Part shown: positions 1 through 5,208 of the stretch, piece by piece
Numbering within the stretch: position 1 is the stretch's first letter
Layout of the letters: each line of letters opens with the position of its first letter
Virus record (IMG/VR): IMGVR_UViG_2585427783_000002
Length of the DNA: 10,125 nucleotides
Source: a virus
Taxonomy: Duplodnaviria; Heunggongvirae; Uroviricota; Caudoviricetes
Reading direction: 5' to 3' (one strand)
Program-made: the position numbers and the translations under genes
Notes under the pieces: generated by a model
Databases searched by the model: none
What the model was told of the DNA's origin: nothing
What the model saw: the letters and a program-made list of their open reading frames with translations, nothing else

Positions 1-1293
<1,293 letters not shown>

Positions 1294-1504: not shown

Positions 1505-1598
1505 CTTGTTGTTCACGTCAACTGGAAATAGGGTGCCTTTTCGACCTTTACCCTGGCAACCGATTGACGGGGAAGTTGCCTTCCCCGTCGCGGTTTCC

Positions 1599-1739: not shown

Positions 1740-1869
1740 AGCACTTGCTCCTTTTCCGGAGAGGCGCTAACCTTTCACTTGTCAAGGTAATGCGGTTAGG
1801 GCCTCGGTTAAACAGAGATGTTTTCCGGGGCCTTTCCACATCTGGCCTTCGGGTATTCCCTCCGACCAT
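1606..1869 (-). CDS. mok-like overlapping frame; start codon uncertain
   Basis: An open frame in a different register covers almost the whole hok-like gene and stops 7 nt before its stop, which is the layout of mok relative to hok. There is no convincing Shine-Dalgarno at the 1869 ATG, so the true start may be an internal or non-ATG codon. Confidence 0.3.
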   Translation of the reverse strand: MVGGNTRRPDVERPRKTSLFNRGPNRITLTSERLAPLRKRSKCYVAKIAYGHHVLRDGNPHHLDAARFTVRNTDELLGSGVCGVLTV

Positions 1870-1891
1870 CAGCCGAAAGGCACCCGCGCGT

Positions 1892-1920
1892 AATCTATCG
1901 CTTTTTTGTTAATCCGGCAA
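1892..1920 (-). promoter_or_regulatory. Candidate sigma-70 promoter for the hok-like mRNA
   Basis: On the minus strand: -35 TTGCCG (plus 1915-1920), 17-bp spacer, -10 TAGATT (plus 1892-1897). A start near 1885 and the terminator near 1475 would give a transcript of about 400 nt, the size class of hok mRNAs. Prediction by motif only. Confidence 0.3.
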
Positions 1921-1929
1921 TTCTGCCTG

Positions 1930-2190
1930 TTAGTTCTGAGGTAAAGGCAAACTCATCTGATTGTTTCCCCTGTGTGAAGCTGGCAGCTCATGCCACGGGA
2001 TACCTTCTGAAGAGTGAACGGCGGAGGCGTGTTTTGATGTGAATTTATGGAAAGCTTCCAGTGTTGAGAAGCATACGCCGCATTCCAGGTTGTTACACTG
2101 GTAATACTTTTGCCGCACGGTGTTTGAATCATTTTCCGGACGACTGGTGCGGATACGGGCAGATGCGCCACAAAGCGGACAACGGAACAT
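1930..2190 (-). CDS. ogr: Ogr/Delta-family zinc-finger late transcription activator
   Basis: 86-aa ORF beginning MFRCPLCGASARIRTSR and containing YYQCNNLECG, giving the Cys-X2-Cys ... Cys-X4-Cys arrangement of P2 Ogr. AAGGGAGG Shine-Dalgarno upstream of the ATG at 2190. Confidence 0.9.
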   Translation of the reverse strand: MFRCPLCGASARIRTSRPENDSNTVRQKYYQCNNLECGVCFSTLEAFHKFTSKHASAVHSSEGIPWHELPASHRGNNQMSLPLPQN

Positions 2191-2232
2191 AGCGACCTCC
2201 CTTAACGTGGTGCTGCCGCTATTCTAAGTTGC

Positions 2233-3342
2233 TCACTCTGTTTCCGCTATCCATTCCGGGATTTTTGCCTCAAGCTCAAGCTGCGTGGTAAAGCCGCTGT
2301 TATCAATAGTGTGCTCGGCTTTTGCAATGATCCAGTCCTGATTATCAATCTCGCTTTTAAATCCTGTTACCGTACCATGCATTTCGGGGTAGAGTTCTGC
2401 ACGTCCACGCGCCAGCGTGATGGAGAATGATGCGGCTCCGCGTTGTAGCTGCTGCCACTTTGCCGCCGCTGCGCGTCTTGCTGCCTGTTCGTTCTGATAG
2501 GTCTTGCGTAACACAAACACATTGCCTTCCGCGCCTTCCATATAATCACCTTCACGGCTGCTGCTTTTCTCCTTTTTGGGTTTTGGCGGTTTGCGGCGTT
2601 TCACGCTGACTTTTTTCTTTTTCCCGTAATTAAGATCAAGCCAGTAAGCGCGTACCCCCGTATACGCTTCGCGGTCAGCAATGCGGAACTGATGGCGATC
2701 GCCACTGCTGCGCGTGATGGCGAACGAGGGCAACGGCTGGCCCTGTGCGTTCACGCCACCGCCTGGCATGATGAATAACAGATTACCGCTTTTTACCGTA
2801 GTGATTGCGCCCAGCATTTCCGCCATGCGCGTAAGGAAGGACATGTCGCTTTCTTCGGTCTGGTCGGCGTGGTCGATTTCGATATCCATCAGCATTTCGC
2901 TGATTTGTGGTTTCAGACCGTACCGATGAGCGATGGCGGATACCACGCGCTCAACGGTCACATCATGCCAGGACACCTCACGTTTAACGTTAAATTCATC
3001 CCGAAAATCTGCGCTTCTGGCTGAAACAGTCAGCCTGTCCGGCGGTCCTTCGTGAGCGATTTCATCAACAATGTAAGTGCCTTTTTCTGTCAGCGGTTCT
3101 CCTTTCCAGCCAATGAGAACCGTCAGGCGCGCGCCCCGTGGCGGTAGCAGCAACTGACCATCCGCATCATCCAGCGTGATGGTGAGCTGGTCCGCCTCAA
3201 ATCCCCGGTTGTCGGTCAGTGACAGGCTCATCAGGCACTCTGCCACGCCTGACAGCGTTTTACCCTCCGCGAGAATATCAAAATCCGGCATTTTCACGGG
3301 GTCTGTGCCCTGACTGAGCAATTGCATGGTGGTGTCGGTCAT
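2233..3342 (-). CDS. D: P2 gpD-like tail protein (late control gene D)
   Basis: Long minus-strand ORF with the gpD-type layout, including a lysine-rich internal segment. I place the start at the ATG at 3342 because GGAGGGAG sits directly upstream; the track ORF extends to 3474 but that extension has no ribosome-binding site. Confidence 0.88.
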   Translation of the reverse strand: MTDTTMQLLSQGTDPVKMPDFDILAEGKTLSGVAECLMSLSLTDNRGFEADQLTITLDDADGQLLLPPRGARLTVLIGWKGEPLTEKGTYIVDEIAHEGPPDRLTVSARSADFRDEFNVKREVSWHDVTVERVVSAIAHRYGLKPQISEMLMDIEIDHADQTEESDMSFLTRMAEMLGAITTVKSGNLLFIMPGGGVNAQGQPLPSFAITRSSGDRHQFRIADREAYTGVRAYWLDLNYGKKKKVSVKRRKPPKPKKEKSSSREGDYMEGAEGNVFVLRKTYQNEQAARRAAAAKWQQLQRGAASFSITLARGRAELYPEMHGTVTGFKSEIDNQDWIIAKAEHTIDNSGFTTQLELEAKIPEWIAETE

Positions 3343-3499
3343 CTGCTCCCTCCCTGTGCGGCATGGTCGCATGTGCGTGCGGAGGGGGTTACTGCTTTTT
3401 GTTGTCGCCGTGGCGGGAGAACGGCGCAGGGGTGAGATTACGCGCGTGGTGGGTGATGATTGTTGCCGAATCATTTAACGGATACAAGGGGCTGAAGCT

Positions 3500-4684
3500 A
3501 TGAGTGAAACTCGTTTTCATGGTGCCCGTGTTACGGAAAGTACCGACCTGGTAACAGCGATTAATGATGTTGATTCCAGCGTTATCGGTATCGTGGCAAC
3601 GGCGGATGATGCGGACGCGAAGCTGTTCCCGCTGAACAAGCCCACACTGCTGACCCGCGTCAATGACGTGCTGGGAAAATGCGGGACAACGGGGACGCTT
3701 TATCGTGCGCTTAAGGCCATCGCAGACCAGGTGAGCACAAAGGTGATCGTCGTTCGCGTGGCTGAACACAAAGAAGAAAACGGAAAGACGCAGGATCAAC
3801 TGGTTATCGGTGGTTCTGAATCTGACGGCAGCTATACGGGGATGTATGCGCTGCTTGTTGCAGAGCAGGATGAAAGCATCGGATACCGTCCGCGTATTCT
3901 GGCCGCGCCGGAGCTGGACACGGAGGCGGTGACAAAATCCCTGTGCGTGATTGCGGGTAAACTGCGCGCGTTTGTGTATGCCGCATGTCATGGTTGTAAC
4001 ACGATGGCTGAGGCGATTACCTACCGCCAGAAATTCAACGAACGTGAGGTGATGCTCTTATGGCCTGACTTCATCGCCTACAACCCGAAAAGTGGCAAAA
4101 ACGAAACGTTCCCCGCGCCTGCTTATGCGTGCGGCCTTCGTGCGTACATTGACCATGAGCAGGGTTGGCACAAATCGCTGTCCAACGTTCCGGTTAAAAA
4201 TGTGCTGGGGATGTCGAGGCATGTGTTCTGGTCGTTACAGGCCGAAGACAGTGATGCCAACAGCCTCAACAACAAAGAAATCACGACCATTATTCGTCGT
4301 AACGGGTTCCGCTTCTGGGGCAACCGCACACCGGAAACGAACGCCTACATCTTTGAGGTGTATACCCGAACCGCACAGGTGCTGGCTGATTCAATTGCGG
4401 AAGCGCAGTTTGAAACCATCGACAGTCCACTGACGCCTGCGAACGTGAAGGATGTTATCAGTGCCATCAGGGCAAAACTGGATTCACTGGTTACTGCCGG
4501 GAAACTGATTGGGGCGTCGTGCTGGTATGACGTGGTGGATAACAGCACCACGAATTTACGTCAGGGGCGTGTGCGTATTCGCTACAAATATACGCCCGTT
4601 CCGCCGCTGGAAGACATGGAGCTTTACCAGTCGTTTACTGATGAATTCTTTGGTCCCGCATTTGCGGTGCTGGGAGGTGCCTGA
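3500..4684 (+). CDS. FI: Contractile tail sheath protein (P2 FI-like)
   Basis: 394-aa ORF that aligns by eye along its length with P2 FI as I recall it, with shared motifs DQEQGWHK/DHEQGWHK, RRDGFRFWGNRT/RRNGFRFWGNRT and YTPVPPLE. Confidence 0.95.
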   Translation: MSETRFHGARVTESTDLVTAINDVDSSVIGIVATADDADAKLFPLNKPTLLTRVNDVLGKCGTTGTLYRALKAIADQVSTKVIVVRVAEHKEENGKTQDQLVIGGSESDGSYTGMYALLVAEQDESIGYRPRILAAPELDTEAVTKSLCVIAGKLRAFVYAACHGCNTMAEAITYRQKFNEREVMLLWPDFIAYNPKSGKNETFPAPAYACGLRAYIDHEQGWHKSLSNVPVKNVLGMSRHVFWSLQAEDSDANSLNNKEITTIIRRNGFRFWGNRTPETNAYIFEVYTRTAQVLADSIAEAQFETIDSPLTPANVKDVISAIRAKLDSLVTAGKLIGASCWYDVVDNSTTNLRQGRVRIRYKYTPVPPLEDMELYQSFTDEFFGPAFAVLGGA

Positions 4685-5196
4685 TGGCTGTACCAAAACA
4701 TCTTCGCTTTTTTACGCTGTTTGTGGATGGTGAAAACGAAGTGGGTAAGGTGACGTCCGTCACGCCGCCCAAACTGACGCGCAAAACCGACAGCTATCGG
4801 GGTGGTGGCATGATGGGGGCGGTAAGTATTGATCTCGGTCTGGACGACTCCGCGCTTGATGCGAGTTTTGTTATGGGGGGAGCTGTTCGTGCGCTGTTCC
4901 TTAAATATGGCGGCACGATTGACGGCACGCTGCTGCGTTTTGCGGGTGAATACTACACCGATGCAGAAAGCGATCTGTATGAAATCGAGATGCGCGGGCG
5001 TGTGACGGAAATTGATATGGGGGAGGCCAAACAGGGCGAAGCCACATCACACACTTACGCTGTCAAAAACACCTACTACAAGCTGAGCGTTAACGATCGC
5101 CCGCTGTGGGAAATCGACCTGCTGAACCACATCTACCGGAAGGACGGCAAGGACATTGTGCCCGATCGCATCCGTTCCGCGCTTGGGCTTGGCTGA
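4684..5196 (+). CDS. FII: Tail tube protein (P2 FII-like)
   Basis: 170-aa ORF whose ATG overlaps the FI stop (TGATG coupling). It contains PPKLTRK, YRGGGM and VMRGR..EIDMGE..QGE, which match the FII pattern. Confidence 0.93.
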   Translation: MAVPKHLRFFTLFVDGENEVGKVTSVTPPKLTRKTDSYRGGGMMGAVSIDLGLDDSALDASFVMGGAVRALFLKYGGTIDGTLLRFAGEYYTDAESDLYEIEMRGRVTEIDMGEAKQGEATSHTYAVKNTYYKLSVNDRPLWEIDLLNHIYRKDGKDIVPDRIRSALGLG

Positions 5197-5208
5197 TAAG
5201 TAATATGC

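Follow-up and report, generated by a model that had tools for sequence, protein, structure and literature searches.

A divergent Sok-type antisense RNA gene is predicted opposite the leader of a prophage-borne hok locus

We analysed a 10,125-nucleotide (nt) stretch of DNA assigned to the Caudoviricetes (IMG/VR record IMGVR_UViG_2585427783_000002; hereafter the window), which carries a hok toxin gene on its minus strand. An earlier sequence-only reading had started from the premise that a hok locus should have a plus-strand cis-antisense RNA, Sok, over its leader, had called this RNA not identifiable, and had left two alternatives: either the antitoxin RNA is divergent from known examples, or it is absent and the toxin is silenced in some other way or is inactive. 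The premise was right and the verdict was wrong, in that a Sok-like gene can be recognised at positions homologous to those of annotated Sok genes, with promoter, start, tail and hairpin present. Our results support a model in which positions 1745-1838 of the plus strand very probably encode a Sok-type cis-antisense antitoxin RNA, divergent and unannotated, for the prophage-borne hok. The support computed here consists of base-resolution homology to annotated Sok genes, a conserved promoter and start, strand-specific hairpin stability and predicted folds.

Results

Homology to annotated Sok genes

At the gathering thresholds of Rfam, no family matched anywhere in the window. A search with Sok-family covariance models had been proposed by the sequence-only reading, and in E-value mode it succeeded: RF01794 ("sok") aligned over all 157 model positions to 1726-1885 on the minus strand, with 48.4 bits and E=1e-9, below its gathering score of 59. 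Our comparative set of 93 loci contains 37 different leaders and 29 different Sok regions (the 37 leader variants and 29 variants referred to below). Relatives of the window locus score 35.6-50.7 bits on RF01794, and because the whole subfamily lies below the gathering score, annotation pipelines miss its Sok. This is the pattern of the first alternative, a divergent antitoxin RNA.

The strand of the match deserves comment. In Escherichia coli K-12 hokC/sokC and hokB/sokB and in phage 933W hokW/sokW, RF01794 matches the strand opposite to the annotated sok with 110-118 bits (minus strand of loci L005 402-554 for sokC, L006 467-618 for sokB and L008 384-558 for sokW). The family therefore models the leader of the hok mRNA, from its 5' end to the hok AUG (157 nt), and Sok is the reverse complement of its middle; as a side effect, "sok antitoxin" matches to RF01794 are about three times longer than the real Sok and lie on the opposite strand. 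Read in this way, the alignment places the annotated 5' ends of SokC (L005:453), SokB (L006:520) and SokW (L008:438) at a single model position, 106, which is window position 1781. Model positions 44-54, where SokB, SokC and SokW end, correspond to window 1834-1841. Measured from the hok AUG (1739, minus strand), the predicted RNA thus delimited occupies 42-99 nt upstream, the same relative place as the annotated SokB, SokC and SokW.

A reciprocal covariance model, built from 16 predicted RNAs of the window's family only and searched against the K-12 and 933W loci, recovered the known genes. It found SokB at 520-570 (annotated 520-576; 26 bits, E=4e-5), SokC at 453-506 (annotated 453-511; 23 bits, E=2e-4) and SokW at 438-510 (annotated 438-508; 16 bits, E=0.01). 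Every match begins precisely at the first base of the annotated gene and on its strand, and the other strand gave nothing comparable. On the window itself this family-only model matched 1781-1837 (plus). The model was built from the window's family because a MAFFT alignment of the four known Soks was structurally too poor for the purpose; similarly, a MAFFT alignment of the window, K-12 and R1 leaders shifted the -10 element by a few bases, and the covariance-model alignment was used instead.

Promoter and transcription start

From known Sok promoters only, and not from the window, we derived the signature TTGC-N19-TAWCCT (plasmid R1, TTGCGC-17-TATCCT; sokW, TTGCCT-17-TAACCT). It matches once in the 10-kb window, counting both strands, at 1745-1773 on the plus strand, where 0.03 matches are expected and 5 of 200 shuffled sequences contained one. 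The predicted start, G1781, lies 7 nt past the -10 hexamer, and CTTG, CTAACCT, G1781 and the base of the stem are invariant in all 29 variants. In the RF01794 alignment, AGGUUA (the complement of TAACCT) and GCAAG (that of CTTGC) of the window share columns with the -10 and -35 elements of sokW and sokB. The leader contains a putative promoter of its own that is homologous to known Sok promoters; its activity is a prediction from sequence.

The three landmarks that had been pointed out earlier, TTGCTC at 1745-1750, TTGTCA at 1779-1784 and six consecutive T at 1902-1907 (all plus strand), are all in the sequence, and they turned out to differ in meaning. TTGCTC is the -35 hexamer; TTGTCA spans the predicted start; and the T-run falls between the -35 and -10 hexamers of the hok promoter, which is on the opposite strand. 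The accompanying statement that no -10 box or terminator hairpin could be called with confidence does not hold, given TAACCT 17 nt after TTGCTC and a 15-base-pair (bp) hairpin followed by UUU. A generic sigma-70 and terminator scan left 1400-2250 without a promoter call and 1740-1930 without a terminator call, with nothing at 1798-1840; since such a scan also misses the promoter and the hairpin, a consensus-based reading was bound to miss the antisense gene. The scan is uninformative rather than negative, as known Sok promoters are also poor matches to the consensus.

Other candidates on the plus strand were rejected. TTGTCA has no -10-like hexamer 16-18 nt downstream (the sequence there is CCTCGG), and a -35 element at the position used in R1 (TTTTCC after CTCC) would leave a spacer of 10 nt. 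A plus-strand open reading frame (ORF) of 55 amino acids (aa) at 1745-1912 has no Pfam match and is disrupted by 1-2-nt indels in close relatives.

Structure of the predicted RNA

The predicted RNA of about 57 nt folds into a single-stranded 5' tail and one long terminal hairpin, a shape that is also predicted for SokB, SokC, SokW and R1 Sok and is kept in 29 of 29 variants. For 1781-1838 the minimum free energy (MFE) is -24.1 kcal/mol (z = -3.9, no shuffled sequence as good), against only -15.3 kcal/mol for the reverse complement. The plus strand is likewise the more stable one in every variant (means -23.9 and -15.0 kcal/mol), because several of the pairs are G-U, which become C-A mismatches on the hok strand. 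Among the 29 Sok regions, GGGGCCTTT is invariant or nearly so, and the upper stem takes at least three alternative sequences across the family, all of which pair. The tail (1782-1797) is the most variable segment and contains indels; its mean column identity is 0.77, compared with 1.0 for the -10 hexamer and 0.98 for the stem.

The hok mRNA and the Sok target

The toxin itself appears intact: Hok scores 29.9 bits on Pfam HOK_GEF (PF01848; cut-off 22) and retains the conserved C-x-T, LCE and E residues. The -10 hexamer of its promoter varies among relatives (TAGATT, TAAATT, TACATT, TACAGT, TAGAAT) but always has the form TAnnnT. The full-length hok mRNA is predicted to fold at -181 kcal/mol (z = -7.7) into a structure that joins its 5' end to the 3' region. 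In this MFE fold the tac-like element GGGUGCCUUUCGGCU (1885-1871) pairs with the fbi-like element GGUCGAAAAGGCACCC (1546-1531), which is conserved as GGCACCC in relatives and is followed by the terminator at 1507-1480. In the fold of the 3'-truncated mRNA, GGGUGCCUUUCGGCU instead refolds onto GGAAAGGCCCC.

In silico truncation also yields the hairpin that we take to be the Sok target, which coincides with a consensus stem of RF01794 (model positions 85-123). The predicted Sok begins with bases complementary to the loop of this hairpin, CUUGACAA, the tail of the RNA meeting CUUGAC(AA). Loop nucleotides 1783-1779 have unpaired probabilities of 0.86-0.99 in the truncated mRNA and 0.14-0.99 in the full-length one, that is, they are mostly more exposed when the 3' end is missing. 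The logic known from R1 (a closed mRNA, refolding upon trimming and an exposed target loop) is reproduced here at the level of prediction. The hok Shine-Dalgarno (SD) sequence is predicted to lie in a short local hairpin, paired with CUCC at 1761-1758.

A further strong hairpin stands just past the hok stop codon (1565-1590, minus strand, CGACGGGGAAGGCAACUUCCCCGUCA). Its stem shows compensatory changes in relatives (GGGGAAG..CUUCCCC, GGGGGAG..AUCCCCC, GGGGAC..GUCCCC), and it is probably the protective 3' stem-loop of the processed hok mRNA.

Absence of a canonical mok start

The leader had been described as a mok leader. An 87-codon ORF overlapping hok in another frame does exist in the window, with starts at -46 (TTG) and -130 (ATG), but it has no Pfam match and the mok frame is not conserved in the family. 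In R1, hok expression requires translation of the mok frame up to the hok SD (PMC9841398, PMC4147584). The leaders of R1, hokB, hokC and hokW have an AUG 7-8 nt after GAGG, whereas none of the 37 leader variants (loci L003, L004, L009-L098; window 1755-1805, minus strand) has an ATG, GTG or TTG 3-14 nt after this motif. In 17 of the 37 (28 of the 93 loci, including those of P88 and the 933W copy), no ORF with a canonical start crosses the hok SD in either alternative frame, and 1-nt indels shift the leader frames among relatives; the 87-codon ORF is therefore lineage-specific. The locus is a hok/sok homologue, and we stop short of classing it as canonical and mok-coupled.

Genomic setting and distribution

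The whole window is 100% identical to a stretch of the chromosome of E. coli strain 300444 (NZ_CM128586.1). It begins with the end of serS, and the remainder is the end of a P2-like (P2/P88-like) prophage, in which ogr is followed by gpD and then, on the plus strand, by the sheath, tube, tape measure and gpU genes. A 938-aa ORF and its neighbour, considered as ileS and lspA, are the P2-like tape measure and gpU in the annotated record. In phage P2, ogr, gpD and the FI-FII-E-T-U genes all lie on the same strand; in the window (1930-5200), ogr and gpD (minus) are divergent from the FI-FII-E-T-U tail operon (plus). The hok/sok cassette follows ogr at the end of the prophage, a position typical of cargo genes. 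Matches to phage genomes end at about 1473 or about 1525, which puts the junction between prophage and chromosome between serS and hok (1403-1510), in the region of the two back-to-back terminator hairpins (Table 1).

Free phage genomes of the P88 group (Xuanwuvirus) carry the same hok locus at 92-96% identity, and Shiga toxin (Stx) phages such as 933W carry it adjoining lom at about 80%. The 933W copy is a second, unannotated hok/sok locus (AF125520.1 45491-45865, between L0129 and lom; L003 1501-1875), additional to hokW/mokW/sokW at 58460-58734; at 80.5% identity to the window locus, it is the true orthologue. Of 5,426 complete E. coli genomes, 1,750 contain homologues of the locus, at most nine copies in one genome, and none of the database records that we examined annotates an antisense RNA at this locus.

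A search for distant relatives among 185,579 species genomes found only six loci, and three of these are probable contaminants: the hok loci in assemblies labelled as a Planococcaceae metagenome-assembled genome, Vagococcus sp. and Xanthomonas pisi (L013, L014, L017) are 72-98% identical to that of the window and probably reflect enterobacterial or prophage contamination of the assemblies. A search of IMG/VR returned 80 loci, all with an identical Hok protein. Many of the IMG/VR prophage contigs (for example L023, L025 and L029; 741 nt) stop exactly 3 nt past the hok match, and where prophage borders are cut at the end of the hok gene in this way, the hok 3' untranslated region, with fbi and terminator, is missing from the records.

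Table 1. Features of the hok/sok locus and its surroundings in the window
Feature	Positions	Strand	Remarks
-35 hexamer TTGCTC	1745-1750	plus	17 nt upstream of TAACCT; TTG invariant in family
-10 hexamer TAACCT	1768-1773	plus	identical to sokW -10 of 933W; invariant in 29/29 variants
Predicted Sok-like antisense RNA	1781-1838	plus	~57 nt (about 54-61); 5' end G1781, 3' end ~1834-1841
Single-stranded 5' tail, putative target-recognition region	1781-1797	plus	17 nt, unpaired in MFE fold
Stem-loop, putative terminator hairpin	1798-1834	plus	15 bp, GC-based; UUU at 1833-1835, then CCACAUC
Predicted Sok target hairpin	1763-1805	minus	GAGGC-CCUAACC...GGUUAG-CGCCUC, loop CUUGACAA; MFE fold of 3'-truncated mRNA
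hok toxin gene	1599-1739	minus	46 aa (MSQKSL...); SD AAGGAG 1753-1748; "Hok/Gef family protein" in identical E. coli record
hok promoter	1892-1920	minus	-35 TTGCCG 1920-1915, 17 nt, -10 TAGATT 1897-1892; read from sequence
Predicted hok mRNA	1472-1885	minus	+1 ~G1885; RF01794 position 1 = 1885; terminator hairpin 1507-1480 + T-run
tac-like 5' element	1871-1885	minus	GGGUGCCUUUCGGCU; matches start of RF01794 consensus
fbi-like 3' element	1531-1546	minus	GGUCGAAAAGGCACCC; complementary to mRNA 5' end
Overlapping ORF ("mok-like")	1606-1869	minus	87 codons, other frame than hok; internal TTG 1785-1783, inside Sok target loop
End of serS	1-1293		E. coli 300444 record
Terminator hairpin ending serS	1412-1441	plus	terminator scan
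Second terminator hairpin	1480-1507	both	back to back with that of serS; terminator scan
ogr/Delta zinc-finger gene	1930-2190	minus	

Discussion

Our results suggest how the locus may work. A constitutive sigma-70 promoter (TTGCTC-17 nt-TAACCT) would start transcription at about G1781, giving a product of roughly 57 nt in which a 17-nt unstructured 5' tail precedes a GC-rich stem-loop that probably acts as terminator and also makes the RNA more stable. On the minus strand, the hok mRNA (from 1885 to about 1472) would be produced in a closed form, its 5' end paired to the 3' element (tac/fbi), and would refold upon 3' trimming so that the hairpin loop CUUGAC becomes exposed. The Sok tail would then pair at this loop and the pairing extend to a duplex of about 55 bp, which would block Hok expression and presumably be cut by RNase III. 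Should synthesis of the short-lived Sok cease, translation of the stable hok mRNA would follow and Hok would damage the inner membrane.

Experimental evidence on this type of promoter comes from a related system. The sokW RNA of the prophage Sp5 was detected on Northern blots (Takada et al. 2021, PMC8621323); the Sp5 hokW-sokW locus is non-toxic as long as the native promoter drives sokW, it becomes toxic, with antitoxin activity lost, upon substitutions in the sokW -10 element (primers YO-421/422/597), and sokW supplied in trans gives partial rescue (PMC8621323). Reading the oligonucleotides of that study against 933W, we found the wild-type sokW -10 region to be GGC-TAACCT-ACATGT-G(+1), which shares both its -10 hexamer and its geometry with the window. 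The window locus is not the published one, as the primers of the paper and the 933W annotation (hokW MKQQKAM..., 58460-58734) make clear. Because Sp5 hokW is not an orthologue of the window hok, the experiment supports this type of promoter and not the window locus directly.

Several observations weigh against our interpretation. The promoter agrees with the sigma-70 consensus in just 6 of 12 bases and escapes the generic scan, and TTGCTC overlaps the ribosome-binding region of hok. The complement of TAACCT, AGGUUA, forms an arm of the target hairpin in the hok mRNA, so that its conservation has two possible causes; as both TAACCT and the stem are also structural in the hok mRNA (target hairpin and sokT hairpin), conservation alone is no proof of promoter or terminator function. 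The stem gives only a weak covariation signal: pairing holds in 96.6% of cells, yet a single pair has changes on both sides and most are invariant, and the identical Hok of all 80 IMG/VR loci means that there is little diversity from which covariation could arise. The U-tract after the strong hairpin is only UUU, shorter than in SokC and SokW, and the simple terminator scan makes no call; some read-through may occur, and the 3' end can be placed only approximately. The RF01794 score is below the curated threshold (48.4 against 59 bits), although a gathering score is a curated threshold for annotation and not a biological feature, and the family-only covariance model did not detect R1-type Sok. 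Finally, everything that concerns expression, namely the transcription of the RNA, its exact 3' end, its instability, its cleavage by RNase III and its role, we infer from the R1 and sokW paradigms, and that such an RNA is made, is unstable and neutralises Hok has been established only for sokW of Sp5, a different locus (PMC8621323).

The imperfect promoter, the three-nucleotide U-tract, the complementarity of TAACCT to the hairpin arm and the near lack of two-sided covariation would all fit an explanation in which the locus has no functional antitoxin RNA: the plus-strand elements would mirror parts of the folding hok mRNA (target hairpin, sokT hairpin and hok SD), and the toxin would be kept off by mRNA structure alone or be inactive. 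This explanation, which corresponds to the second alternative of the sequence-only reading, seems to us very improbable. It does not account for a hairpin that is far more stable on the plus strand in all 29 variants, nor for a start G and a -10-to-start spacing that coincide with those of three annotated Sok RNAs. A hypervariable segment lying between an invariant promoter and an invariant stem is what one would expect of an antisense specificity region, and the elements homologous to SokB, SokC and SokW are kept throughout the variants. Moreover, no conserved residue of Hok has been lost, and about 1,750 E. coli genomes as well as viable P88-like and Stx phages carry the locus intact; so wide a distribution would be difficult to sustain for an active toxin that nothing guards.

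The short U-tract also leaves room for a longer product. An antisense RNA that starts at about 1781 might mostly read through UUU and end, for example, at the T-run at 1902-1907, the first strong plus-strand T-run downstream; it would then be about 125 nt long and run antisense to the whole of the hok 5' leader and to its promoter. We regard this as very improbable, despite the silence of the terminator scan. The annotated 3' end of SokB is similarly poor in U (CCUUCGUCUUU), the hairpin, at -24 kcal/mol, is a strong one based on GC pairs, GGGGCCTTTCC does not vary across the family, and no convincing hairpin directly precedes 1902-1907. A Sok-type RNA of about 57 nt remains the reading that we favour.

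With an antitoxin assigned, the locus would be a complete type I toxin-antitoxin pair and not an orphan toxin. This is mainly a correction, but one that reaches beyond the window, as about 1,750 complete E. coli genomes, along with P88-like and Stx phages, lack an annotation of the antitoxin; a lower RF01794 threshold, or additions to its seed from this subfamily, would repair many annotations. Otherwise the finding is an ordinary one with a minor twist, the lack of a canonical mok, which raises a small, testable question for the whole subfamily: how does Sok repress hok where there is no leader ORF? Sok could act, in some variants, by occluding a leader start that is non-canonical; other possible routes are cleavage by RNase III and an effect on structure. 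It is even possible, though on balance doubtful, that the phage-borne subfamily (P88-like near ogr, Stx near lom) works without mok altogether, with Sok repressing only through the duplex and RNase III or by holding the hok SD hairpin closed, and with Hok translated directly after mRNA processing. If so, the subfamily would offer a naturally occurring exception to the requirement of mok translation for hok expression. A literature search for a described mok-less hok family found nothing, and a 2026 survey of Hok explicitly left Mok and Sok unanalysed.

Comparison with known hok/sok systems

The closest parallel in setting is SokW of 933W/Sp5 (AF125520 58460-58734). Like the predicted RNA of the window, it is prophage-borne and has the -10 hexamer TAACCT at 17-nt spacing after a TTGC -35 element, a start G 6-7 nt downstream of the -10, and a 5' tail followed by a long hairpin that ends in GGGGC(U)n; both leaders match RF01794 over its full length. 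The two loci are only distantly similar in sequence, however. HokW has 51 aa (MKQQKAM...) and the Hok of the window 46 (MSQKSL...), the hairpin of SokW is longer and is followed by UUUU, and the mokW AUG lies 8 nt after GAGG, where the window's family has none.

SokB and SokC of E. coli K-12 (b4429, b4413) belong to the same length class (57-59 nt), have their 5' ends in the same RF01794 column and share with the window the stem base GCCUCGG...CGGGGC, including a U-G wobble, and both were found by the family-only model. They differ in being chromosomal, in having an annotated mokB or mokC and in their scores on RF01794 (110-118 bits, against 48 for the window). In addition, their -35 element lies downstream of the complement of the hok SD, whereas that of the window overlaps it.

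With respect to hok/mok/sok of plasmid R1, the window leader is shorter by about 25 nt, and the start of R1 mok, 7 nt after GAGG (PMC9841398, PMC4147584), has no counterpart in it. The general design is nonetheless shared. In both systems, for the window by prediction, the hok mRNA is stable and highly folded, tac and fbi pair the 5' and 3' ends, a terminator follows fbi, the loop of the target hairpin meets the 5' end of Sok, and the antisense promoter (TTGCGC-17-TATCCT in R1) lies inside the leader.

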